Below, one piece after another: positions 5,801 to 47,888 of a stretch of DNA of 64,000 bases (its first letter is position 1; every line of letters starts with the position of its first letter). Location of the stretch: the NCBI GenBank assembly GCA_041650915.1, contig JBAZKE010000001.1, forward strand, positions 379,284 to 443,283, given 5' to 3'. Under the pieces are notes generated by a model that was given only the letters and a program-made list of their open reading frames with translations, had not been told where the DNA came from and made no database searches. The position numbers and the translations under genes were made by a program. Source of the DNA: Patescibacteria group bacterium (GTDB lineage Bacteria; Patescibacteriota; Patescibacteriia; UBA10025; JAHIVO01).

Positions 5801-6302
5801 TCCCGAAGATGGCAGCGAGCTCCTGGATATTTTTTTCTGCCCGTGCGGTATCCTCGGCGATGATCGGCTGAGCTACCATGCCCTGGAGGCACGCGCTCAA
5901 CCCGATAAGGCCACCCGCATGTTCACGGAGGAGTTCAAGATCAATGCGTGGCTTGTAGTAGTAGCCTTCGAGGTGGGCTCTCGTCGTGAGCTTAATGAGG
6001 TTTCGGTACCCCTCGTTGTTCTTAGCGAGCAGGACGATGTGGTACGGACGGTCATCGACTCTCGCTCGCTTGTTGTGCATTCCGTTCCGGGCTACGTACG
6101 CCTCGACGCCGATGATTGGCTTGACGCCTGCCTTGAGCGCCTTTTGATAAAATTCAATAGCGCCGTACATGACGCCGTGGTCAGTCAGCGCAACAGCAGG
6201 CATATGTAAATCACGGGCTCTCTTTACGAGATCATCAATCTTTGTGAGCCCGTCGAGGAGACTATAATGACTATGGACGTGTAGGTGAACAAAGTCCGGC
6301 AT
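2847..6302 (-). CDS. dnaE: DNA polymerase III alpha subunit
   Basis: 1151 aa. N-terminal PHP motif MPDFVHLHVHSHYSLLDG, polymerase core, and C-terminal OB fold. Confidence 0.95.
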   Translation of the reverse strand: MPDFVHLHVHSHYSLLDGLTKIDDLVKRARDLHMPAVALTDHGVMYGAIEFYQKALKAGVKPIIGVEAYVARNGMHNKRARVDDRPYHIVLLAKNNEGYRNLIKLTTRAHLEGYYYKPRIDLELLREHAGGLIGLSACLQGMVAQPIIAEDTARAEKNIQELAAIFGTGNFYLEVQDHPSIPHQNEVNETIFALGKKFDLPVVATNDVHYLNSDDDEIHDILICLQTKRKQRDRDRMTYLGEDFSFKTPEEMAKAFPDHPEAIANTIKIAQACTVTIELGTIQLPHFEVPNGKLPDAYLRELCTGGIPKRFPGRERDAVIEKRLEYELGVIEKTGFASYFLIVQDFVNWAKQNGIVVGPGRGSAAGSIVSYLLNITNVDPLKYDLLFERFLNPERISMPDIDLDFADTRRDEVIRYVEHKYGKDHVAQIITFGTMAARAAVRDAGRVLDLAYAYCDKVAKLIPMFSSIADALKAVPELKALYDSDPDGKKLLNAAVKLEGVARHASTHACGVVITKEPLDRYLPYQYAAQSEDETIVTQYDLHAIEDLGLLKMDFLGLKNLTIIENTINIIRKARNIEINIDTIPLDDKKTFTLLQQGKTTGVFQLESSGMKRYLKQLKPTELEDIIAMVALYRPGPMELIPDFIAGKHGLKLATYLNPRLKPILERTYGIAVYQEQVMQIARDLAGFSLAEADVLRKAVGKKIRKLLIQQRDKMIEGMVKNKIPRSTAQKIWQFIEPFARYGFNRAHAACYALIAYQTAYLKANYPDEFMASLLTSDYGNIDRIAIEVEECEQMHIQVLPPDINESFSTFTAVFNPEKKNPMKKIRFGLLAVKNVGVNVVRNIIAERKENGPFKNLEDLLRRVQTKDLNKKTLESLMKAGALDQFGERNELLGSIDAILTYMKSAERETLNGQTNLFGVLPTQHAPQLRLKSAAPATKQQKLSWEKQLLGLYISEHPLEEYRERLRNLATPIGDLSAAAPHRKEITIGGIISNIQKVLTRNNDPMLFVKVEDMSGRIEVLVFPTTLQANPTPWQEEHVVLIKGRVSDKEGSLKLLCSEVQQLNLDAMGDSAPRHTTQATGNVYIAIPARTDKETFNRLKITFSQHPGEYRVHLRVRSSSKIKVITTNYLIREESFDTIRSIIGTDSITLT

Positions 6303-6326
6303 AGGGTAGGCTGCCTGCGGATTCAG

Positions 6327-6665
6327 TTACGAAGTTTCTTTCTCTTTTTCGCTAGCCTTTTTTCTTTTTGGTTTTTCTTCGCGCCTCCGCTTGAAATACT
6401 CGACGAGTTCAGTGATTCCCTTGAACAGCAGTGGCAAGTAAGACGCTGAGTTTTTAATTTTGTCCTCGACAGCATCGAACAGCCGTTCGAGCCGTTCGAG
6501 CTTTTGCTTTATGCTCATGACCAGTTCGCTCACCTCATTGACCACCGCATGCGCTCTCTTGAGCATCATGACAATGTAGTAGAGCGCCCAGCACATAAAA
6601 AAAGTCAGGGCAACCGCACACGTTGCGAGGGCAACGAAGAGAAGATCCTTGCTCGTCTCAAGCAT
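6327..6665 (-). CDS. hypothetical small membrane protein with coiled-coil and Lys/Glu-rich tail
   Basis: 112-aa ORF with one TM (LFVALATCAVALTFFMCWALYYIV) and a charged C-terminal tail. Confidence 0.5.
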   Translation of the reverse strand: MLETSKDLLFVALATCAVALTFFMCWALYYIVMMLKRAHAVVNEVSELVMSIKQKLERLERLFDAVEDKIKNSASYLPLLFKGITELVEYFKRRREEKPKRKKASEKEKETS

Positions 6666-6779
6666 CGTCGTACGTTAGTGGTTTAGGATAGCTGGGTACA
6701 GTATAGCACACACTCCAATATCATCAACAACGAGTTTCCAAGAGGCTTCAGATGTGGTAGGATATACTACGGTAACAGC

Positions 6780-7619
6780 ATGACCGCTATGCCAGACGTA
6801 AGTACCGTATGGTTACGGGCAAATTACTACGCTCTCTCCCACCGGAACGAGCTTAAAAAGTGGTGGGTTATCGTACTGCTTGCAGTAGCGGTATTCTGCG
6901 TTGTTTTCGTTATCACGAATATTACCGTCTACATCATCGGCATTCCCCAACAAACCAGTACGATGGTGGCGATGGCAAGCAGCCAGGTCGCATACGGCAA
7001 GATCCGCATCGAAAACCAGCCGGTTAATCCATCAGTCGGCGCCGCGACAGCCGTGCAAATGACGACAGGCGCCTACGATCTCATCGTGCCGGTCCACAAC
7101 CCGAACAGAAACTGGGCAATCAATGAGATTGCGTATAAATTTACCGTAAACGCGACGGAAACTGAGGTTGCTACCGATTTTATCATGCCGAATAGCAGGA
7201 AGATTTTGACGGTTCGGAACGTGCAAAGCCCGTTCTCCCCGAGCCAGATCGCCGTTACTGTTTCCATCGAGAGCATTTCATGGAAGCGGATCGATAATGT
7301 CGCGGCACTGCCGTCACTCGACTTCACTATTGAAAATATTAAGCAGTCCATGTCGAACGTCGGTGGCATACCGTACTACCTCGTGACTGCCGATGTAACG
7401 AACAATTCTTTTACGAGTTTTTGGAGCACCAAGTTCGTGACGCTGCTCTACAGCGGGGATGCAATCGTCGGCGTGCACTATACCTACCTCGAGCCGTTCA
7501 ATACTTCAGAGAAGAAGTCAATCTATGCCCAGTTCGACAGCGTCCAGACTTCTGTGACGAGCGTATCGATCGAACCTGATATTAACCTGCTTGACACTGA
7601 GAATATCGTGAGCAGGTAA
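6780..7619 (+). CDS. hypothetical membrane-anchored protein
   Basis: 279 aa with N-terminal TM (WWVIVLLAVAVFCVVFVI) and a beta-rich ectodomain. Immediately upstream of the SEDS gene. Confidence 0.55.
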   Translation: MTAMPDVSTVWLRANYYALSHRNELKKWWVIVLLAVAVFCVVFVITNITVYIIGIPQQTSTMVAMASSQVAYGKIRIENQPVNPSVGAATAVQMTTGAYDLIVPVHNPNRNWAINEIAYKFTVNATETEVATDFIMPNSRKILTVRNVQSPFSPSQIAVTVSIESISWKRIDNVAALPSLDFTIENIKQSMSNVGGIPYYLVTADVTNNSFTSFWSTKFVTLLYSGDAIVGVHYTYLEPFNTSEKKSIYAQFDSVQTSVTSVSIEPDINLLDTENIVSR

Positions 7620-7627
7620 GTAACCGC

Positions 7628-8740
7628 ATGGTAAAAAAGCTACTCCTCTACTTACGGAAATCTGACTGGCCGCTGAGTTCGGTAGTTCTTTTTTTGGTTG
7701 CGTTCGGTCTCATGGCCCTCTACAGCATCGAGTCGGCAGTGCAGGATCCGCAGTTCGCGAATTTGCAAAAGCAGCTCATCTTTCTCGCCGTTGGCATCGT
7801 GTTCCTCGCCGTGTTCAGCATGATTGATTATCGCCACCTGCAGACGTACAGCATCGTTTTACTCGTGTTCGGCGCTCTCCTCCTCGCCTCGGTACTCTTT
7901 TTCGGTACGACAGTGCGCGGTACCCGCGGCTGGTTTACGCTGTTTGGAGGCCAGGGTTTCCAGCCTGTTGAGCTCATCAAGCTCATCCTCATCATCGGCC
8001 TCAGTAAGTTTTTTGCAGACTGGCGCACTGAAGTGCAGACTATAAAGCAGCTCGTGATCCTGTTCGCTGTTGCGATCCCGCTCATCGCGCTCGTGCTCTT
8101 GCAGCCTGATTTCGGCTCGGCAGTTATCCTGGCTGCCATCTTTCTCGGGATGCTCGTTTTTTCGAAAGTAAAGCGTTCGTACGTCATCGGCATCGGCCTG
8201 CTGCTCATCGTGCTTGTTGGGTTCAGCTGGGCATTTCTGCTGCAGGATTACCAGAAAGATCGGATACTGACGTTCATGGACCCGGGCCGCGATCCGTACA
8301 AGAGCGGCTACAACATCAAGCAGTCGATTATCGCTGTCGGCTCAGGCAGTATCTTTGGCCGAGGCCTCGGATTGGGCCCTCAGAGCAGGTTGAATTTTCT
8401 GCCGGCGCAAGAAACTGATTTTATCTTCGCGGTTATTGCCGAGGAACTGGGATTCGTGGGGAGTTCTCTGCTTATACTGTCTTACGTCTGGCTGATTTAC
8501 CGGCTCGTACGCATTGCTCGGCTCATTCGGGATGATTTTGGCATCTTTGTCGTAACCGGGATCCTCATCTATATTACAGCTCAGGGAATTCTCAATATCG
8601 GGATGAATATCGGGTTGCTTCCGATTGCGGGTGTGCCGCTGCCGTTCGTGAGCTATGGAGGGAGCTCTATGATATCGAGCTTTATCGCAGTTGGAATCGT
8701 CCAGAGCGTATACATTCGGCACCTCACGTCACGGGCGTAG
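7628..8740 (+). CDS. ftsW: SEDS family peptidoglycan polymerase (FtsW/RodA/SpoVE)
   Basis: 370 aa polytopic protein. SEDS signature block DFIFAVIAEELGFVGS and about 10 TM segments. Confidence 0.85.
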   Translation: MVKKLLLYLRKSDWPLSSVVLFLVAFGLMALYSIESAVQDPQFANLQKQLIFLAVGIVFLAVFSMIDYRHLQTYSIVLLVFGALLLASVLFFGTTVRGTRGWFTLFGGQGFQPVELIKLILIIGLSKFFADWRTEVQTIKQLVILFAVAIPLIALVLLQPDFGSAVILAAIFLGMLVFSKVKRSYVIGIGLLLIVLVGFSWAFLLQDYQKDRILTFMDPGRDPYKSGYNIKQSIIAVGSGSIFGRGLGLGPQSRLNFLPAQETDFIFAVIAEELGFVGSSLLILSYVWLIYRLVRIARLIRDDFGIFVVTGILIYITAQGILNIGMNIGLLPIAGVPLPFVSYGGSSMISSFIAVGIVQSVYIRHLTSRA

Positions 8741-37430: not shown

Positions 37431-37467
37431 GTTGTTTTGTCGTTGGTGGGGGAGTAGAATGGGGGTA
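37431..37467 (+). promoter_or_regulatory. conserved promoter module, copy b (TTGTTT-17-TAGAAT)
   Basis: GTTGTTTTGTCGTTGGTGGGGGAGTAGAATGGGGGTA, 29 nt upstream of the ATG at 37496. Confidence 0.6.
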
Positions 37468-39439: not shown

Positions 39440-39476
39440 GTTGTTTTGTCGTTCGTGAGGGAGTAAAATGGGGATC
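39440..39476 (+). promoter_or_regulatory. conserved promoter module, copy c (orphan; points antisense into the minus-strand gene 39561..39803)
   Basis: GTTGTTTTGTCGTTCGTGAGGGAGTAAAATGGGGAT. No plus-strand gene follows. Confidence 0.45.
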
Positions 39477-39932: not shown

Positions 39933-40011
39933 CTTGTTTTGCTGTTCGTGGGGGAGAAGGCGACTGGCGGGAAGTGGTGGAGTTGACAATCTGGGCGAAC
40001 GGGTGTACGAT
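39933..40011 (+). promoter_or_regulatory. promoter module copy d (diverged), then a consensus TTGACA-17-TACGAT promoter
   Basis: CTTGTTTTGCTGTTCGTGGGGGAG..., then TTGACAATCTGGGCGAACGGGTGTACGAT upstream of the GTG at 40049. Confidence 0.5.
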
Positions 40012-40435: not shown

Positions 40436-40544
40436 TATCAGTACCCAACACAATGAAAGGGTGGTTTGCATGACGCAGATCACCCTTGATTTTTTTGTGC
40501 TCCCGCACCATTGAAAATGGTGTGAGAGGTTGATTTATTAGCAA

Positions 40545-40565
40545 AAAAGGAGGAGAATGGGGGTA
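40545..40565 (+). promoter_or_regulatory. conserved promoter module, truncated copy e at the edge of the AT-rich island
   Basis: AAAAAAGGAGGAGAATGGGGGTA keeps only the 3' half (the -10 and G-run) of the module. Confidence 0.4.
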
Positions 40566-40592
40566 TGTATTTGGTTTACACCATGATTATTA

Positions 40593-41468
40593 ATGACTAT
40601 GACTATGACAGATTACAGTGAGTTTCAAAAAAGATTCAAACTATTAGCGAGTAAAAATAAACATCTCGTAATTAACACCTTATCCAATATATTTACGATG
40701 AGGTTAATTGGTAATAAAACTCACGGTGATTTAGCAGAGATAGGCATGGTTGAATTTATTAACCAGTTCATGTATGACTTTAAAAGTATTCATGTTGGGA
40801 AAGATTTATTCCGGGCAAAAGAACATGAAGAGGATATAGTTGTTATTAATGAAATTACCAAAACTAAATTTCCCGTAAGTTTAAAGGCATATGGAGATGG
40901 GCCGCTACAACTTTCAACTGATTGTGACCAAAAAATGTTTCCATTTCTTGAGAAACAAGGTAAAAATATTGTAAATTCTAACAAAATAGAAGAGGTGTTT
41001 AAATCAAAAGAATTCGCAGCATTTGATGCAATAAATGTTATGCCACTTATTTATGATGAGAAAAAACAGAGATGTAATATTATGATTTTCGATCATAATA
41101 AAGCTATAAATGAAACTAGAAGGATTGTTTTCATTAATTTCAAAGAAAAATTTGATTTTGAAACCAAAAAAGTAATTCCAGGGAATTCTCGATCACACCC
41201 AATTTTTATGTTTCTTGATACTGGAGGAAATTATATATGTGAGGTTAGATATGGAGGCGCTTCAGCAAATGCACTTCAACGTGGTTTTTGGACTCATACA
41301 AAAAATGCACTTTCATTTTTTGATTCACTCACAAACGGCTGGATTGACTATTCTCATAATCAGACACTAGTAAAGTTGTTTAGCCTCGCACTTAATAGTT
41401 CTGAGCAGGGTCATAAATTAGCTAATGAAATTCTTCAGAAAGACATCGACAGATTAAAGACTTTATGA
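40593..41468 (+). CDS. putative type II restriction endonuclease (DpnII/MboI-family-like)
   Basis: 291 aa, AT-rich. Its stop overlaps the MTase start (ATGA). The block EVRYGGASANALQ resembles the DpnII-family EVNFYSGSGSKLN block; similarity judged by eye only. Confidence 0.4.
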   Translation: MTMTMTDYSEFQKRFKLLASKNKHLVINTLSNIFTMRLIGNKTHGDLAEIGMVEFINQFMYDFKSIHVGKDLFRAKEHEEDIVVINEITKTKFPVSLKAYGDGPLQLSTDCDQKMFPFLEKQGKNIVNSNKIEEVFKSKEFAAFDAINVMPLIYDEKKQRCNIMIFDHNKAINETRRIVFINFKEKFDFETKKVIPGNSRSHPIFMFLDTGGNYICEVRYGGASANALQRGFWTHTKNALSFFDSLTNGWIDYSHNQTLVKLFSLALNSSEQGHKLANEILQKDIDRLKTL

Positions 41469-42577
41469 CTGACCAGCAATTGAACATTTTTGGTAATTCC
41501 ACCATAACCACACCAAAAACTGAAGGTATTAAGTATGCTGGGTCAAAGTTAAAAATCTTGCCATATATAATTGAATTAGTAAGCGATTTAAAGGGTGTAA
41601 AAAAAATCTTAGATGGCTTTACTGGCACAACTCGTGTTGCACAAGCTATGGCACAACTTGGATATGACGTAACCGCCAGTGATATATCAATATGGTCGGA
41701 AGTATTTGCTAATTGTTATTTAAAGTCGAAGAAACCCGATAAATTTTATCAGGATATTCTAGACCATTTAAACAAGCTAAAGGGTTGTGATGGTTGGTAT
41801 ACTAGACATTATGGCGCCAAACCAAAAGAGAATAAAAAGCCATTTCAGGAAAAAAATACCCGTAAATTAGATGCGATCAGAGATGAAATTGAGAAGATTA
41901 ATTTACAATGGGTTGATAAATGTGTTATTTTGACCTCATTAATTAATGCATTAGATTCGGTTGATAGCACACTGGGTCATTATGTTTCATATCTCTCAAA
42001 TTGGTCTAAACGTTCGTATAATGATTTATATTTAAAATTACCAAAAAGAATTCAAAGTCCTGGCAAACATAAAGTGATTAAAGGAGATATTTTTGAAACA
42101 ATTAATAATAATGAATTTGATTTAGTGTATTTTGATCCACCGTATGGCTCAAACAATGAAAAAATGCCACCCAGCAGAGTCCGTTATGCCTCTTATTATC
42201 ATATTTGGACGACGGTTATCAAACATGATAAACCGGTAGTTTTTGGTAAGGTAAATCGAAGAGAAGATAGTAGGGACTTGGTAGCTGGTTCTGTATTTGA
42301 GGATTTTAGGAAAGATAATAATGGTTCATTTATTGCAATGGAAGCATTAAGAAGATTAGTCAAAGAAACAAAAGCACGATATATATTATTGTCATACAGT
42401 TCTGGCGGAAGAGCAACAAAAAAGGAACTTAATGAGATAATTGATGAATCGGGTAAACTATTAAAAGCAGTTGAAATTAATTATAAAAAGAACGTAATGG
42501 CTAATATGCGATGGACACATGAATGGATAAACAGTGATGGAAAGCATTCGGAATACCTTTTTTTAATGAAAAAATGA
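41465..42577 (+). CDS. D12-class (Dam-like) N6-adenine DNA methyltransferase
   Basis: N-terminal IKYAGSKLKILPYII (KWAGGK-type motif I) and catalytic VYFDPPYG (DPPY). Confidence 0.8.
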   Translation: MTDQQLNIFGNSTITTPKTEGIKYAGSKLKILPYIIELVSDLKGVKKILDGFTGTTRVAQAMAQLGYDVTASDISIWSEVFANCYLKSKKPDKFYQDILDHLNKLKGCDGWYTRHYGAKPKENKKPFQEKNTRKLDAIRDEIEKINLQWVDKCVILTSLINALDSVDSTLGHYVSYLSNWSKRSYNDLYLKLPKRIQSPGKHKVIKGDIFETINNNEFDLVYFDPPYGSNNEKMPPSRVRYASYYHIWTTVIKHDKPVVFGKVNRREDSRDLVAGSVFEDFRKDNNGSFIAMEALRRLVKETKARYILLSYSSGGRATKKELNEIIDESGKLLKAVEINYKKNVMANMRWTHEWINSDGKHSEYLFLMKK

Positions 42578-42589
42578 TAGGACAATGTT

Positions 42590-42745
42590 ATGGCAATAGA
42601 AAAGGTTAGTTTTATCGCGACAAAGTATAAAAACAAACCGACAATGGTACGTTTTTATACTAAAAAAGGTGATGTTGTAAGATTTTCAGCTCAAAAAAAA
42701 GCACCCGTAAAGCAGGTTGTTGAATTTAAAGCTAAGTCAAAATAA
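42590..42745 (+). CDS. small basic protein (51 aa)
   Basis: MAIEKVSFIATKYKNKPTMVRFYTKKGDVVRFSAQKKAPVKQVVEFKAKSK. Below the ORF-track length cut-off; lies between the MTase and rusA. Confidence 0.35.
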   Translation: MAIEKVSFIATKYKNKPTMVRFYTKKGDVVRFSAQKKAPVKQVVEFKAKSK

Positions 42746-42748
42746 ATT

Positions 42749-43198
42749 GTGAGCACTACATATTTTGATTACAGTTTTGGGTTGTCAGAAATTATTCCAT
42801 CAGGCAATCGTCAAAAAAGTGATAGTGCTTGTGCGTTTTATAAAGTTGTTGGTCAAGCGTTAAAAGATATTGATAAACAAGGAATCTTCCCAACAAAAAA
42901 GTTAGTTTTTATTTTTATTTTACAGTTTTTTTCGAATCAAGAAGAATATCAAAAACGAGATATTGATAATATGTGCAAAACCATGCTGGCGGCATTAAAA
43001 AATAAGATATATGAGGACGACGTACAAGTAAAAACGTTATTAATCAGTAAACAAATAAATAGTAAGATTCCGGTAAACTTCGTTTACATCGGAATAAAGT
43101 TATCCGATTACAAGGATAATACCGGAATGGTGAAAGTAAATATTAACAATGCCATATCATTGTTTCAGGGCTCTGTTAAACAAGCAGTTGAAAAGTAA
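42749..43198 (+). CDS. rusA: RusA-family Holliday junction resolvase (phage-type)
   Basis: QKRDIDNMCKTMLAALKNKIYEDDVQV matches the RusA catalytic block [28 protein letters not shown]. Confidence 0.7.
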   Translation: MSTTYFDYSFGLSEIIPSGNRQKSDSACAFYKVVGQALKDIDKQGIFPTKKLVFIFILQFFSNQEEYQKRDIDNMCKTMLAALKNKIYEDDVQVKTLLISKQINSKIPVNFVYIGIKLSDYKDNTGMVKVNINNAISLFQGSVKQAVEK

Positions 43199-43237
43199 TA
43201 TAATACGGTAGATACTATATGAGTGCTAATCCTAGCA

Positions 43238-43267
43238 CTTGTTTTGTTATTGGTGGGGGAGTAGGAT
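43238..43267 (+). promoter_or_regulatory. conserved promoter module, copy f (TTGTTT-17-TAGGAT)
   Basis: CTTGTTTTGTTATTGGTGGGGGAGTAGGATGG, 10 nt before the ATG at 43277. Confidence 0.55.
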
Positions 43268-43276
43268 GGAGAATAT

Positions 43277-44365
43277 ATGGTAAGCATTTTCGAACAAATT
43301 TCAATTTTATTACAAGGACAGCCTTGGATGGTTTTTGGTGGTTATAATTTAAAACTCCAGGGGATTGATAATAGCGCAAATGATATTGATATTGTTACGA
43401 CTGATAAGGGGATTGGGATAATAGCCAAAACGAGAAAAGAAAAAGTTAATCGAGGAAATAATTGGAAAGGATGTAAATTTGTCGTAAATGGACTGCAAAT
43501 TGACGTAATCACTGAGGAGGGTTTTACTCAACAATTTTTTCAAAAATACTTACAAGAAAACAGAATAAACATTATATATTATGATGGCGTACCAGTATTT
43601 TGTTTAAAATTATCTGAGCAACGAAAAGGATACGAAGCAATTTTAGCCGCTCATAAGGGGAGCAATGACCCAACTCTTAAGATAGAATTATTGAAAAAAT
43701 ATGAGGAAAGTAATAAATTCACCCCCGAGCAATGGTATGTTGTGTGGAAAAGAATTTTCGAAGAAAATTTATTAGCCGACTTATATAAACTAGTCAGTAA
43801 TCAACCGCAGCAAAGTGGAGGTTTGAATTTCGTTATTGTACTGATGTGCCTCGTAACTATGGATTTAGTGGGGAAGCTTATTTGCGGATCAAATAACAAA
43901 GACGCAATAAGGGCATTTATTAAATCGGAGTTTTTTCAAATACCTAAAGCTTACAATGGAGACGACTTTGCGGATATAATTAATACTGAATTAAGAAATA
44001 ACCTGGCTCATGCCTTTTTCCCTGAAAGGAACATTGCAATTGGCAGAAATACACCTTTTCAACATTTTAATATTATACCAGTAGTCGGTTCTGAAAGAAA
44101 ATTATTTTGGATTGATGCTGATGAACTGCACCGGGATCTTTTGCAATCGTTAGATCAATATAAAGCGGCTTTAATTGAAGATAAAAAACAGGACGGCGAT
44201 AGACTCAGGTCATTATTTGTTAAATATGTTAATGAAAATATGTTAACTGAGTCGATAAATCTTAAAGGGTTTATGGAAAAGAATTATAAGCTCGATGTAC
44301 ATAATTATCCAATTAGTTCAGATAAGGTTACTCATACTACAACGTTACCGCCTGAAACAAAATAA
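43277..44365 (+). CDS. fused minimal nucleotidyltransferase (MNT) - HEPN-like protein
   Basis: N-terminal WMVFGGYNLKLQGIDNSANDIDIV (hGG-x13-DhD NTase motif, Lnu-like). C-terminal ELRNNLAHAFF fits the HEPN R-x4-H motif. Confidence 0.5.
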   Translation: MVSIFEQISILLQGQPWMVFGGYNLKLQGIDNSANDIDIVTTDKGIGIIAKTRKEKVNRGNNWKGCKFVVNGLQIDVITEEGFTQQFFQKYLQENRINIIYYDGVPVFCLKLSEQRKGYEAILAAHKGSNDPTLKIELLKKYEESNKFTPEQWYVVWKRIFEENLLADLYKLVSNQPQQSGGLNFVIVLMCLVTMDLVGKLICGSNNKDAIRAFIKSEFFQIPKAYNGDDFADIINTELRNNLAHAFFPERNIAIGRNTPFQHFNIIPVVGSERKLFWIDADELHRDLLQSLDQYKAALIEDKKQDGDRLRSLFVKYVNENMLTESINLKGFMEKNYKLDVHNYPISSDKVTHTTTLPPETK

Positions 44366-44456
44366 TTTCCATTGTTTATATCGGCAGATCCGCCCCCCCG
44401 CTGGCGGTTTTTTGTTTGGGATGATCGTGATACAATAATAATACATAAAAAATTAT

Positions 44457-44696
44457 ATGAAAAAAGCACTATATATTTCCTTTGCTATCGTTGTACTGCT
44501 CGGTGCCGGGATATTCATTTACTTCCAATACTGGGGCACTGATGGCATCCCTACGAATTCAAACACCAACACGCCTGCTAATACGAATGCGGTCGCCTGC
44601 ACCATGGAAGCTAAACTTTGCCCGGACGGATCGGCAGTGGGACGCACTGGCCCGAATTGCGAATTCGCGGCCTGCCCGGAAGTGGAGCAGGAGTAG
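44457..44696 (+). CDS. small secreted/membrane-anchored protein with NTNTPANTN linker
   Basis: 79 aa with N-terminal TM and Cys pairs in the C-terminal part. Confidence 0.45.
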   Translation: MKKALYISFAIVVLLGAGIFIYFQYWGTDGIPTNSNTNTPANTNAVACTMEAKLCPDGSAVGRTGPNCEFAACPEVEQE

Positions 44697-44900
44697 GTTG
44701 GAAGGAAGGAGGGTGTAAGTTTTAGGAAGAAAGTAAGGAAGTATGAGATAGGAAGAAGGGTGGATGAAGGGAAGTAGGGCGAATGATGAAGGCATAGTAG
44801 TAGGAAGTAAGTTTTTAGGTTGTACGAAGAAAGTAAAGAAGAAGGAAATTAGAAGAAGGATACGCATTGACGCGAAAAGGAAATTCTGATAACATTGAAG
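44697..44900 (+). repeat. strand-asymmetric purine-rich (GA) low-complexity tract with internal imperfect repeat
   Basis: GGAAGGAAGGAGGG...AGGAAGAAAGTAAGGAAG... The units (GTAAGTTTT(T)AGG...GAAGAAAGTAARGAAG) occur twice. Confidence 0.6.
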
Positions 44901-44996
44901 CACATAAAACTTCCCCAAATTTGCGGGAAGTTATATTTATTATGGATAAGTATTGTGGATAAATGAATGTTGACAATATAACATATATGATATATT

Positions 44997-45350
44997 ATGA
45001 TTAAAGCGTATTATTTCGTGCGACAAAACGGAAGGGCGCCGGTTGAGGAGTATGTTCGTTCAATCAACTCAAAACGGGAAATTGCCTATATCCAGGCAGC
45101 GATTGATAAGTTAATCAAGTATGAAGGAAGGTTACCGCTGCCATACGCAAAGAAAATCCGCGATAAAGTATGGGAGTTACGTTCACCATTAGGCAATCGG
45201 GTTTTTTATTTCATTGATACAGGCCAGGAGATTATTCTCCTCGATGGGCACACAAAAAAGCGTGACCGAATAGAACCTCGAATCCTGAATCGCGTTTTGA
45301 ACCACTATAGGGAGTACCAAGCTACCCGTAACCGTAAACCGTACCAATAA
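44997..45350 (+). CDS. type II toxin, RelE/ParE superfamily (Gp49/HigB-like)
   Basis: 117 aa. KVWELRSPLGNRVFYFIDTGQEIILLDGHTKK is the Gp49-like (DUF891) signature. Confidence 0.65.
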   Translation: MIKAYYFVRQNGRAPVEEYVRSINSKREIAYIQAAIDKLIKYEGRLPLPYAKKIRDKVWELRSPLGNRVFYFIDTGQEIILLDGHTKKRDRIEPRILNRVLNHYREYQATRNRKPYQ

Positions 45351-45360
45351 CAAATCATAT

Positions 45361-45627
45361 ATGAATAAGAATAATATTTTTTATAAATTTCAAAAGGACA
45401 AAGAATACCAACGCTACTACAAAGAAGCAAGCGATATGCTTGAAATTGCCATTCAGATCGCTGAAGCGAGGAAGAAACAAAAGATGACCCAGGTCCAGTT
45501 AGCAAAACATATCGGTATGCCCCAGAGCCAGATTGCCAGGATTGAGAGCGGTAATAGCAATACAACTGTCAGTACACTGTATAAAGTCTTAAACGCGCTT
45601 AATTTGCGTTTGAAATTGGCGAACTAA
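45361..45627 (+). CDS. XRE-family HTH antitoxin (HigA-like)
   Basis: MTQVQLAKHIGMPQSQIARIESGNSN is an XRE HTH. Immediately downstream of the toxin. Confidence 0.65.
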   Translation: MNKNNIFYKFQKDKEYQRYYKEASDMLEIAIQIAEARKKQKMTQVQLAKHIGMPQSQIARIESGNSNTTVSTLYKVLNALNLRLKLAN

Positions 45628-45734
45628 TTATTTTTTCTTTTACATTTCGCCTTAACGGGCGGTTTTTTATTTGAGATGAATATGGAAGGACGGGGCGTTT
45701 GTTTATTATGGAGAAATAATATACAATACCAAAC

Positions 45735-46034
45735 ATGACCAAGAACCCATTTCTCAATGCACTCGCAGCAGGTGCGTACATCGTACTGGTAGTTGGTATC
45801 ATGACGTACATGGGCAAACTCAATGGCGGCCAGGACCAGGAGTTTATCACGCCGCTCGCGGTACTATCGCTGTTCACGTTGTCAGCCGCGGTGATGGGGT
45901 ATCTGTTCCTATACCAGCCGTTTAAGCTGTACTTCAATAACGAAAAAGAGGCTGCAGTGAAGCTCTTCCTTAAGACAGTTGCGATTTTTGGTGTTATGAC
46001 CGCATGCATACTGGTAGTCGTGGCCGTAGCATAG
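45735..46034 (+). CDS. small membrane protein (3 TM)
   Basis: 99-aa hydrophobic ORF. Confidence 0.45.
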   Translation: MTKNPFLNALAAGAYIVLVVGIMTYMGKLNGGQDQEFITPLAVLSLFTLSAAVMGYLFLYQPFKLYFNNEKEAAVKLFLKTVAIFGVMTACILVVVAVA

Positions 46035-46134
46035 AGTACCCTTGAGATTTTGCCGAGGTTGTTTTTTTATTGGAGAAGATTCGGTTAGAAGCGGTTTTTT
46101 ATTTAAAGTAATCGTGATACAATTGTGTTACTAT

Positions 46135-46299
46135 GAATAAAATAACTCGAATAGCACTGTCCATTCTCGCGATACTGTTTGGGGCGTTTATGTTTGTGTA
46201 TGGCGGATATGACGACAGCCCGGGAGGGCAATTATTGGGATTGGTGCTGGTTATTGGCGGCATTGTGCTGATAATAAAAAGCAGGAAGAAAAAGGAAAA
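46135..46299 (+). CDS. small membrane protein (54 aa, 2 TM, Lys-rich tail)
   Basis: MNKITRIALSILAILFGAFMFVYGGYDDSPGGQLLGLVLVIGGIVLIIKSRKKKEK. Below the track cut-off. Preceded by a terminator/promoter junction motif. Confidence 0.35.
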
Positions 46300-46637
46300 A
46301 TAAGAAGCATCCAACTACCGCGATGGGATGCTGCGCATTGCCGGAGAACTGGGCGCACGTTGTTTTTTTGCCGACTGGCTTTTGTACCAGGGTACGGCGA
46401 CCAGGTGAAAGCCGAAGCCATCAACCGCTTGCCACGGGAGGTTTTCAATTTTTTCGAGCAGTTGTCTTCGCTGATTGCCAGAATCGTCGGGTAGAATTTT
46501 TAGAAACAAAAACAGGCTTCACGCATTGACAGCGCGGGGATTATTTGGTTAACTGCTTAAATCAGTTTTGTGAAACAGGCCTTTGATACTGCCAGTAAAC
46601 TGGCAAAAACCCCAAAACAAAAGAAAGGAGTGTGCCC

Positions 46638-47888
46638 ATGGCACTCAATGAACTCGATCGTTTCCTGGCGTATGCCAAAGTTGACACGCAGTCAAGAAAA
46701 GCGGCGCCGGGCGAGGAGGAACAGCACCCGAGTTCGGCCGGCCAGGCAGAACTGGCCAGCATCGTTTTCCAGGAACTCTGCGGAATCGGTGTCCCTGAAC
46801 AGCAGATCACGAGGCTCGGTGACGGTTCGCTGCTCGTGTACTTGCCGCCAACGGAAGGCTGTGAGAACAAGCCGACGGCGGCGTTCGCTGCCCATTTCGA
46901 TACCTATCCCGCGAGTTCCGGCAAGGTCAACCCCATCATACACGATTACGCCGGCGGCGATATCGTGCTGCCCAATGACGGCACCGTGATCCCGGCCGCG
47001 GATCTCGCAGGCTTCGAGGGCAGCCAGATCGTGACAGGTGACGGCACCTCGCTGCTCGGCGGGGACGACAAGGCAGGCGTTGCCGGGCTGATGGAGGCCA
47101 TCAGCCGGATCATCGGCGAGGAACTTCCGCACGGGCCGCTCTATATCTGGTTGTGTGTGGACGAGGAAATCGGGAAGGTCGGCACCGACTTCCTGCCGGA
47201 AGGAGTGCCGGACCAGTGGGATATTTTCCTGACCGTGGACGGCAAGGGAGTCGATACGGTGGATATCGGCTGTTTCAACGGCGCGGAGGCTGTCTTCACC
47301 TTTATCGGCAACGATGCCCATCCCGGCATCGACGGTGACAAGCTGAAGCCGGCGCACTTCGTGGCCGCCCGCTTCGTTTCCACAATCGCCACCTTGCAGT
47401 GCCCGTGGGATCCCGCGGACGCCGAAGACTCGTTCTACTATGCGTTCTTTTTGGGAGAACCGACTCCGGGCAGAGCCGTGGTGCAGTGCGTCCCGCGGTC
47501 GTTCGACCTCAGGGATCTGGATGGCATGGCGAAAGATCTCCGCGGTTTAGCCCAGGAAGCGGCTGATGTGTTCGAGGTCACCCTGGAGGGCGGCGAGCTG
47601 AAGGTGCTCTATGTCAGCACCGAGGAGGCTATCGCAGCCAATCCTGGCCTGATGGAGGTCGTATTTGCCGCGGTCGGGGCGAACGGCTACCCGCTGGTCA
47701 AAGAACGGGTGCGCGCCGGCACGGATGGCGCCATGCTCAACATGAAGTACCCGGACATCCCGGCGCCGAACCTCGGCACCGGCGCTCGCAATCTTCACGG
47801 CGTGCGCGAGTTCCTGGCGGTCAGGGAGTTCGAGACGGTCGTCCCGACGCTCCTGCGGATCATCGCAGGTTTCGCTGAAATGGGGTAA
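46638..47888 (+). CDS. M20 family metallopeptidase (PepT/tripeptidase-like)
   Basis: GGDDKAG metal-binding motif and M20 domain organisation. Start at the ATG at 46638 after the AAAGGAG RBS. Confidence 0.75.
   Translation: MALNELDRFLAYAKVDTQSRKAAPGEEEQHPSSAGQAELASIVFQELCGIGVPEQQITRLGDGSLLVYLPPTEGCENKPTAAFAAHFDTYPASSGKVNPIIHDYAGGDIVLPNDGTVIPAADLAGFEGSQIVTGDGTSLLGGDDKAGVAGLMEAISRIIGEELPHGPLYIWLCVDEEIGKVGTDFLPEGVPDQWDIFLTVDGKGVDTVDIGCFNGAEAVFTFIGNDAHPGIDGDKLKPAHFVAARFVSTIATLQCPWDPADAEDSFYYAFFLGEPTPGRAVVQCVPRSFDLRDLDGMAKDLRGLAQEAADVFEVTLEGGELKVLYVSTEEAIAANPGLMEVVFAAVGANGYPLVKERVRAGTDGAMLNMKYPDIPAPNLGTGARNLHGVREFLAVREFETVVPTLLRIIAGFAEMG

Follow-up and report, generated by a model that had tools for sequence, protein, structure and literature searches.

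Fusions between HEPN domains and nucleotidyltransferases (NTases) are known. Two families, HEPN-T and HEPN-M, were listed as 'fused to MNT' (minimal nucleotidyltransferase) in the HEPN census of 2013 (PMC3710099), and FhepTA (SO_1440, 276 amino acids, aa) from prophage CP4So of Shewanella oneidensis was reported in March 2026 as a fused MNT-HEPN toxin-antitoxin (PMC13000451). The MNT domain of FhepTA auto-oligo-AMPylates the tyrosine of the Rx4HxY motif and also blocks dimerisation of the HEPN domain, a precedent for a fused NTase-HEPN protein working as a self-regulated toxin (PMC13000451). Here, we describe a two-domain protein of comparable layout, which is encoded at positions 43277-44365 (+ strand) of a 64,000-nucleotide (nt) stretch of contig JBAZKE010000001.1 from a Patescibacteria group bacterium; this whole stretch is referred to as the window. 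An earlier note on this DNA had considered the protein a candidate for an undescribed MNT-HEPN system, a claim of novelty that the two reports cited above remove for the concept as such.

The target protein and FhepTA are both single chains with an N-terminal NTase of the pol-beta type, followed by a C-terminal domain in which the R-phi-xxx-H motif is intact; both are located on mobile DNA and have relatives in which the two parts are separate proteins. By this analogy, FhepTA appears to be the best functional model for the target as a self-regulated RNase. The two differ in length (362 aa in the target), share no detectable sequence relationship in either half, and possess NTases of different types, namely, MntA in FhepTA and the TM1012/PF10706 clade in the target. 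The C-terminal domain (C-domain) of the target is also larger (~190 vs ~140 aa), with a beta-sheet insert and extra helices, and the tyrosine that is AMPylated in FhepTA, located two residues after the motif histidine, is replaced by phenylalanine (F247). While homologues of FhepTA and HepT/MntA occur as adjacent pairs, stand-alone homologues of the two target halves were never neighbours in the loci examined.

HepT/MntA systems (HEPN, PF05168 / DUF86, PF01934, with MNT, PF01909) resemble the target in combining an NTase with an Rx4H motif and in their association with mobile elements and restriction-modification (R-M) genes. Unlike the target, they consist of two genes from different families, and their mechanism needs the tyrosine that the target lacks. 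Neither the target nor any of the 30 members of its C-domain family matched the HepT models PF05168 and PF01934, and no HepT chain was retrieved in PDB searches. Every membership test was negative and, judged by its sequence, the protein lies outside the HepT/MntA and FhepTA families. The earlier proposal of a HepT/MntA-type fusion, in which MNT AMPylates HEPN, is not upheld, given the lack of MntA or HepT matches, the presence of F247, and the separate location of the solo halves.

An NTase and a helical domain of HEPN ancestry are also joined in one chain in kanamycin and lincosamide NTases, GlnE, GlnD, and DrrA. In these proteins, the helical domain has lost Rx4-6H and has no catalytic role, as is usual for NTase-fused HEPN domains with a substrate-binding role (PMC3710099). 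The target differs from the kanamycin/lincosamide (KNTase/Lnu) type in that the motif is essentially invariant and the C-domain has ~28 stand-alone homologues. A Lnu-type substrate-binding domain and variable motif residues had both been named in the earlier note as findings that would contradict its reading; the motif is near-invariant, and PF07827 and NTase_sub_bind had no match in the target or the C-domain family.

Thus, the original observation of two motifs in one protein was confirmed and its first interpretation was partly supported. The protein represents an independent fusion of an NTase and a HEPN-like domain from families other than those of FhepTA, the general concept being already published. 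With a probability of roughly 55%, we interpret it as a single-chain protein in which a HEPN-like RNase effector is under the control of a built-in NTase, and which is part of a horizontally acquired defence cassette.

A rare fusion of normally separate modules

The open reading frame (ORF) at 43277-44365 begins with ATG and codes for 362 aa followed by a stop codon. It is a real gene, as seen from the ORF list, the gapless alignment to a second full-length protein, P0002, and a ratio of nonsynonymous to synonymous substitution rates (dN/dS) of 0.15. The public gene call, P0001, comprises 345 aa and begins at M18 of the target; since residues 1-17 are retained in P0002 and, in the alignment with TM1012-family proteins, correspond to their N-terminal helix, the true start is at 43277. 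The NTase signature F20-G21-G22-x13-D36-I37-D38 (43334-43390) can be read directly from the translation. The same protein contains E238-L-R240-N-N-L-A-H245-A-F-F248, in which RNNLAH is encoded by nt 43994-44011. This second motif had been reported ~230 residues downstream of the first one; it is indeed present, with R240 ~200 residues past DxD.

The occurrence of these motifs by chance was estimated from 20,000 composition-preserving shuffles of the 362-aa protein. A bare Rx4H was present in 20% of the shuffles and is, therefore, weak evidence by itself. The more specific pattern R[NDH]x3H occurred in 3.3%, G[GS]x9-13Dx[DE] in 6.9%, and both motifs in the right order in 0.085%, so that chance alone is an unlikely source. 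The motifs alone are suggestive. Their conservation across relatives is the stronger argument and, at the level of sequence, settles that they are real.

The word-indexed search of 5.8 billion protein clusters recovered nothing except this protein and a single relative, P0002 (362 aa; 62% identity; gapless alignment). A two-sequence profile built from these proteins was then used in a HMMER search of 1.84 billion representative proteins (E <= 1e-3). The 87 matches split cleanly into solo proteins of two types, without any third full-length fusion. About 55 of them, with lengths of 130-165 aa, correspond to residues 1-145, and ~28, with lengths of 195-245 aa, to residues 155-340. This agrees with the earlier statement that such halves usually occur as separate proteins. 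The nearest solo proteins tile the fusion almost without a linker: P0004 (150 aa) corresponds to residues 2-143 and P0003 (201 aa) to residues 140-336. No further fusion was detected when GTDB genomes, IMG/VR, and JGI metagenomes were scanned, and tblastn of the target against phage and plasmid records revealed nothing but weak similarity to the N-domain. With two instances among billions of proteins, this is a very rare fusion of normally separate modules.

The N-terminal half of the gene displayed a dN/dS of 0.26 and the C-terminal half a value of 0.10 in the comparison with P0002, all these values being approximate because dS is near saturation. Both halves have, accordingly, been under purifying selection while fused, and the C-domain is the more tightly constrained one. 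A full-length structure prediction from the two-sequence alignment was unusable (predicted local distance difference test, pLDDT, 38), and a joint MAFFT alignment of the full-length protein with both solo families was discarded since C-type fragments were misplaced.

No NTase gene was found next to the solo C-domain genes in five loci (L005, L007, L011, L012, and L013). Likewise, no C-domain gene was found next to the solo NTase genes in L006 and L018-L020 or next to the gene of the multidomain protein P0005 in L016; locus L017 was too short for this comparison. A hidden two-gene form beside P0004 was ruled out, as no C-domain-like reading frame follows this gene. P0004 itself (L006) is encoded on a 731-bp contig with direct repeats of ~40 nt at 1-40 and 643-685 (GATCGGGGAAAGGAAAAGTATAC.TCA.TACAAC), which points to a gene cassette located in an array of repeats.

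The N-terminal half (residues 1-145; 43277-43711) could be assigned with the help of its relatives. A profile of 51 N-domain relatives matched TM1012 of Thermotoga maritima, a solved structure labelled 'putative nucleotidyltransferase' (PDB 2ewr/2fcl/4hx0), with E = 7.4e-38 over 146 positions, while the target sequence alone reached an E-value of only 0.45. PF10706 was matched by 40 of the 51 relatives but not by the target itself, even at E <= 10. The catalytic positions are conserved in this set: G21 in 44, G/S22 in 50, and both D36 and D38 in 49 of the 51 sequences. D76 (43502-43504) occupies a column with E or D in 33/51 relatives and aligns to the E of 'KVEIM' in TM1012; by this alignment, it is the probable third catalytic carboxylate. 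Taken together, the profile match and the conserved catalytic positions firmly identify residues 1-145, by sequence, as a pol-beta-type nucleotidyltransferase of the TM1012/PF10706 clade with intact catalytic residues. The earlier assignment of FGG-x13-DID to a minimal NTase is borne out by these data. With this clade, the N-terminal half shares clear homology, the G[GS]...DxD...acidic set, and the size of stand-alone proteins. TM1012 is a solo protein, whereas the target has an additional C-terminal extension of 215 aa.

The MntA models PF01909 and PF18765 were not matched by the whole protein at E <= 1 or by the N-terminal half at E <= 10. PF01909 was touched by only three of the 51 relatives (E >= 0.027), and no MntA chain was present in the PDB search with the N-domain profile. 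Based on these comparisons, the NTase half is placed outside the MntA clade. The same profile gave a faint match to the AbiEii/AbiGii toxin structure 8an4 (E = 0.098). The structure of TM1012 has been solved and, to our knowledge, the protein is without an assigned function. It served as the closest modelling template for the NTase domains of fukutin/FKRP (PMC2794190). For these reasons, protein AMPylation is not the default expectation for the TM1012 clade.

The C-terminal domain and its probable relation to the HEPN superfamily

The C-domain (residues 147-340; 43715-44296) was examined using an alignment of 30 sequences. None of these matched any model of NCBIfam, PADLOC, or PHROGs, and direct scans of Pfam, NCBIfam, PADLOC, and PHROGs with the whole protein and with each half gave nothing. 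The only repeated Pfam signal in the family was PF18736 ('HEPN pEK499_p136'), obtained for two of the 30 members at E ~0.05. The C-domain, therefore, represents a very rare family, which is absent from the annotation libraries searched and whose members are mostly stand-alone proteins.

The RNxxxH motif recognized earlier proved to be real: R240 is present in 29, N/H241 in 29, and H245 in all 30 family members. Among the other conserved positions are D168 (29/29), G181 (28/30), E/D196 (29/30), G199 (30/30), and Y226 (28/30), as well as H263 and D280. The column of residue 247 contains F in 18, Y in 6, and M in 3 of the 30 sequences, with F247 in both the target and P0002.

The AlphaFold2 (AF2) model of the C-domain obtained from the family alignment had a pLDDT of 91.8 and a predicted template-modelling score (pTM) of 0.88. 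It contains long helices at residues 150-174, 184-203, and 228-246; RNNLAH closes the third of them, and the segment after it is not helical. Between the second and third long helices, there are a short helix (210-215) and a loop. Beta-strands 253-256, 265-268, and 275-280 precede the fourth long helix (281-300), which is followed by two shorter helices. Confidence was low over the Thr-rich C-terminal tail THTTTLPPETK (44330-44362), in which TTTLPP is identical in P0002.

HEPN domains fold into an up-down bundle of four helices, frequently with inserts between the second and the third; helix 3 ends in Rx4-6H, the arginine of which is followed by a polar residue, and helix 2 often contains an acidic residue (PMC3710099). 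The C-domain carries R240-N241-x3-H245, that is, Rx4-6H with a polar residue (N/D/H) after R. In the predicted structure, this motif is placed at the end of core helix 3, at the start of the loop between helices 3 and 4. D196 (43862-43864; E/D in 29/30 relatives) lies inside model helix 184-203 and corresponds to the acidic residue of core helix 2, and helix 210-215 with the adjoining loop corresponds to the helix 2-3 insert. At the level of sequence and modelled topology, the C-domain thus displays the motif with its position and polar residue, the helix-2 acidic residue, and the helix 2-3 insert of the HEPN definition.

For comparison with PF18736, 120 proteins were collected starting from the pEK499 prototype ('HEPN family nuclease', NC_013122), and 38 of these were aligned. 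PF18736 and the C-domain share the same order of elements, that is, helix 1, helix 2, an insert, helix 3 ending in RN(S/G)xAH(x)F (RNSxAHF in PF18736), strands, and a final helix. HEPN domains of the PF18736 type are also found with R-M genes (PMC3710099). Differences include the smaller size of PF18736 (~160 aa), its lack of the conserved D168, GG-loop, and Y226, and a similarity that is below any membership threshold. In reciprocal hidden Markov model (HMM) searches with NTase decoys, 25 of the 25 top cross-hits of the C-domain HMM were PF18736 proteins and 20 of the 25 top cross-hits of the PF18736 HMM belonged to the C-domain family, all of them scoring below 10 bits. The hhalign match between the two families was colinear over the whole domain at a permissive threshold (low mact). 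As judged from these sequence comparisons, the link to the HEPN family PF18736 is weak but consistent. Considering all of this evidence, we regard membership of the C-domain in the HEPN superfamily as probable, at about three in four.

Proposed mechanism and alternative explanations

The protein is probably an anti-phage or toxin-like effector. The gene was gained horizontally as the last gene of a low-GC defence cassette made up of a type II R-M system, a small ORF, a RusA-like gene, and the target. According to the mechanism that we propose, the C-domain would be a divergent HEPN domain, in which a helical core carries the RNxxxH dyad where helix 3 ends as well as the acidic residue of helix 2, and in which a small beta-sheet precedes helix 4 as an insert. 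It would act as an RNase in abortive infection or as a toxin, a role that we also presume for the solo family members beside R-M, SIR2, and AbiU2 genes. The attached NTase would be a cis regulator, which keeps the RNase silent until a trigger appears, either by blocking dimerisation or by self-nucleotidylation. The latter would involve a site other than the canonical tyrosine, with Y226 and T352-T356 of the Thr-rich tail being candidates. Such a protein would be analogous to FhepTA or to fused toxin-antitoxins of the CapRel type and would have evolved independently of them from different families.

The Thr-rich tail could be a modification or recognition site. Ser/Thr/Gly-rich ends (TTT..., SGxSG) are frequent in the C-domain family, for example, in P0006, P0010, P0025, and P0072, and 'TTTLPP' is common to the target, P0002, and P0010.

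Several results weigh against the proposed NTase-controlled RNase. The architecture has little comparative support, since only two fusions are known, and solo C-domain proteins function without any NTase neighbour. The neighbours of two of the five solo C-domain genes (L011 and L013) are unremarkable and not obviously related to defence. NTases of the TM1012 type form a clade different from that of MntA, and the nearest relatives with a characterised activity use small molecules or glycans as substrates (PF10706; fukutin modelling, PMC2794190). Given F247 and the occurrence of tyrosine in only six of the 30 family members, the known Tyr-AMPylation chemistry is not directly transferable. Searches for structural relatives were also unfavourable: Foldseek with the C-domain model retrieved no PDB chain with E < 1 and no solved HEPN structure, and the best of two matches in BFVD, both uncharacterised phage proteins, had E = 0.038 and a TM score of 0.47. 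PDB profile searches with the full or core-trimmed C-domain alignment retrieved no HEPN chain; they gave noise only, such as ribosomal protein L9, tektins, and NmFic. An identity of the C-domain as Fic was rejected, as the NmFic match (E = 0.43) covers the region before the Fic motif and HxFx[DE]GNGR is absent. The hhalign comparison with PF18736 reached a probability of only 16.8% (P = 0.0015) over 19 motif-centred columns, and comparisons with one AbiU2 and one DUF5677 sequence were not significant and aligned at the motif only.

The results obtained for the C-domain are the basis of one of the two main rival explanations, which we consider unlikely and about equally so. Here, the C-domain would not be a HEPN RNase but a separate alpha/beta fold that uses the Arg/His pair for another purpose, such as the binding of a ligand or nucleic acid or some other catalysis, and its likeness to HEPN would not extend beyond a short motif. 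The failure of Foldseek to retrieve a solved HEPN structure and the absence of a fitting Pfam, NCBIfam, PADLOC, or PHROG model agree with this idea, as do the 17% hhalign probability over ~19 columns around the motif, the conservation of D168, Y226, H263, and D280 outside the generic HEPN signature, and the presence of a three-stranded sheet and extra helices in addition to a four-helix bundle. On the other hand, Foldseek is weak for divergent helical bundles. A motif that closes the third long helix, the polar residue, the helix-2 acid, and the helix 2-3 insert fit the HEPN definition, PF18736 has the same motif-strands-helix layout and is the preferred reciprocal HMM cross-hit, and HEPN families typically adjoin R-M and AbiU2 genes (PMC3710099). 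The other of these explanations reverses the roles of the two halves. The NTase would be the effector and would transfer nucleotides to a nucleic acid, a protein, or a small molecule, with the C-domain acting as a substrate-binding or targeting module, as in kanamycin/lincosamide NTases. NTase toxins of the MenT/AbiEii type modify tRNA 3' ends, and the faint match to 8an4 (AbiEii/AbiGii; E = 0.098) as well as the intact and conserved catalytic residues are in line with such an activity. The same NTase clade is also joined to other partners in mobile or conflict contexts (P0005 and Klebsiella plasmids), and helical HEPN-type domains at the C-termini of NTases classically bind substrate (PMC3710099). 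However, substrate-binding HEPN domains typically lose Rx4-6H (PMC3710099), while R and H are essentially invariant here, and the C-domain is the more constrained half (dN/dS 0.10 vs 0.26). Furthermore, the C-domain family is mainly stand-alone with no NTase nearby, which implies that this domain has a function of its own.

Two more conventional identities are far less probable. We regard it as very unlikely that the protein is an ordinary fused HepT/MntA of the FhepTA kind, with MNT oligo-AMPylating a tyrosine beside the RNase motif. The order of an N-terminal NTase and a C-terminal Rx4H domain, the location on mobile DNA, and the tiling of the fusion by P0004 and P0003, much as FhepTA relates to its two-gene homologues, would suit such a protein. 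The missing acceptor tyrosine (RNNLAH-A-F247) and the larger C-domain (~190 aa with a beta insert vs ~140 aa) would not; nor would the lack of MntA/HepT Pfam matches, PDB profile searches that give TM1012 and no HepT, or the absence of anything C-domain-like after P0004 and of an NTase before P0003. The least probable explanation is an antibiotic-modifying NTase of the ANT(2'')/Lnu type encoded by a resistance gene, which is brought to mind by the PF10706 ('Aminoglycoside-2''-adenylyltransferase') matches of the N-domain relatives. The target falls short of PF10706 even at E <= 10, and the PDB search gave TM1012 but no ANT(2'') chain. Enzymes of the ANT(2'') type do not possess such a C-terminal domain. 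The neighbouring genes encode R-M and nuclease proteins and no resistance determinants, and resistance plasmids gave no matches other than hypothetical proteins with weak similarity to the N-domain.

Within the interpretation of the protein as an NTase-controlled RNase, a more specific version is put forward only tentatively. The C-domain would be a new family of HEPN-like defence-island effectors, possibly the one named 'Bxe_C0808', and the protein would be a convergent single-chain, self-regulated NTase-RNase toxin, in which an NTase of the TM1012 type exerts control through a chemistry or a site other than Tyr-AMPylation. We know of no protein-modifying member of the TM1012 clade. If the interpretation as an NTase-controlled RNase is right, an NTase check on a toxic HEPN RNase has two or more independent origins in NTase and HEPN lineages that are unrelated, and may be a general design principle for fused toxin-antitoxins or abortive-infection effectors. 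It would also offer a first functional handle on the TM1012 clade and on a rare HEPN-like family found beside R-M, SIR2, and AbiU2 genes. The practical value would be modest, with two fusions and ~30 C-domain clusters, none of them in a cultured model organism, and a concept published in 2026.

Genomic setting in the window and in related loci

The target is the last of five tightly packed genes on the + strand. These genes encode a type II restriction endonuclease (40593-41468; PADLOC REase_II, 1.3e-116), a D12-class N6-adenine methyltransferase (41465-42577; PADLOC MTase_II, 3.5e-135; Pfam MethyltransfD12, 3.9e-25), a basic protein of 51 aa (42590-42745), a RusA-like Holliday-junction resolvase (42749-43198), and the target protein. 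A hairpin with a T-run resembling an intrinsic terminator was detected by a terminator scan at 44390-44417 (+), 25 nt past the target stop. The RusA-like protein matched Pfam RusA (3.2e-7, above the gathering score) and PHROG 140 (2.7e-7) and contains an intact DxDN...DD set. The public call for this gene covers the last 75 codons only (42971-43198) and loses the catalytic DIDN located just upstream; a GTG-initiated ORF of 149 aa is more plausible. It was the same gene caller that shortened the target to M18.

The GC content of the five-gene cassette is 31-33% (~32% for the block at 40.5-44.4 kb) compared with 53% in the window as a whole and 52-63% in the genes on either side of the island, which indicates that the cassette is foreign DNA. 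The earlier description of the setting as a phage-like island with R-M and RusA genes is correct with regard to these genes and to horizontal acquisition. The term 'phage-like' applies only loosely, because the precomputed annotations, which cover 14 kb around the gene, include no integrase or phage structural gene; 'defence islet' fits better than 'prophage'. Just downstream of the island (44997-45627), two genes encode a 117-aa protein resembling Gp49/HigB toxins (Pfam 1e-10) and an 88-aa protein resembling HTH_3 antitoxins (1e-15). They form a typical toxin-antitoxin pair with an intermediate GC content of 38-44%.

The peptidase M20 gene of the window (46632-47888) has an orthologue at 6762-8033 of locus L005 from a related genome, and the regions upstream of these genes were compared (window 40500-46600 vs L005 1-6760). 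The window contains the type II R-M system, RusA, the NTase-HEPN gene, and HigBA, while the cassette of L005 consists of a type I R-M system, YgjP, and two small genes, with a DUF4406-like protein among its products, and ends with the gene for P0003, a solo C-domain protein. Since the cassettes differ, the site upstream of the M20 gene can be considered a variable defence hotspot, in which a HEPN-like gene recurs with an NTase in the window and without it in L005.

In L007 (2924-7409), the solo C-domain protein P0072 is encoded between a SIR2_2 gene and a HEPN_AbiU2 gene located 20 nt downstream; the latter is followed by the gene for an AAA_15/AAA_21 ATPase. A family called 'Bxe_C0808' was defined in the 2013 HEPN census only as being 'in operon with AbiU2' (PMC3710099). 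The C-domain family may correspond to this group; tblastn of a typical C-family member and of the AbiU2 neighbour against phage and plasmid records revealed nothing. In L012, the gene for solo C-domain protein P0006 has an MmeI-type R-M gene upstream and DUF3800 and PLD-SNF2 genes downstream.

The second fusion, P0002, is located downstream of genes for an SMC/ABC-like ATPase and a Cas4-like PD-(D/E)XK nuclease (L001, 49-2549). The ATPase appears to be split into a Rad50 zinc-hook-like piece and a piece of 429 aa. Its C-terminal region carries RNFVSH, reminiscent of ABC-HEPN proteins of the PrrC/RloC type; hhalign of the C-domain family against this ATPase produced an alignment at the motif only. 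A weak terminase-like ORF is present at 6181-7374 (-) of the same locus.

The NTase clade itself was found in several other settings. In P0005 (L016), it is fused to helix-turn-helix (HTH), HNH, and zinc-ribbon domains, and the neighbouring genes are of RhuM/Fic, Bro-N, LexA-like, and Eco57I types. Klebsiella plasmids encode proteins of 411-434 aa (L002, 2149-3453; L003, 2197-3432) that combine an N-terminal extension with a C-terminal NTase of the PF10706 type, only distantly similar to the N-terminal half of the target. Their genes adjoin those for E2/UBC and JAB/MPN proteins or for an S-4TM pore-forming effector. The PF10706-type clade, therefore, recurs in conflict-system neighbourhoods.

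A conserved 34-nt element, TTGTTTTGYYRTTSGTGRGGGAGTARRATGGRGR, is located directly upstream of the target start (43239-43272) and ends 5 nt before ATG. Four copies of this element are present in the window (37432-37465, 39441-39474, 39934-39967, and 43239-43272; all on the + strand), with none expected by chance, and one of them is located 42 nt upstream of a gene for a FecR-domain protein. The element had no Rfam match and was absent from all other loci examined. It reads as a -35 box TTGTTT, a conserved 17-nt spacer, and a -10 box TAGAAT/TAGGAT/TAAAAT, the last being TAGGAT in the target copy. This suggests a shared promoter or operator and a nearly leaderless target transcript. In addition, two terminator tails (44404-44436 and 46091-46123) lead into the same sequence, GCGGTTTTTT(G/A)TTT...ATCGTGATACAAT, with 82% identity over 33 nt, which may represent a recurring terminator-promoter junction of the host.

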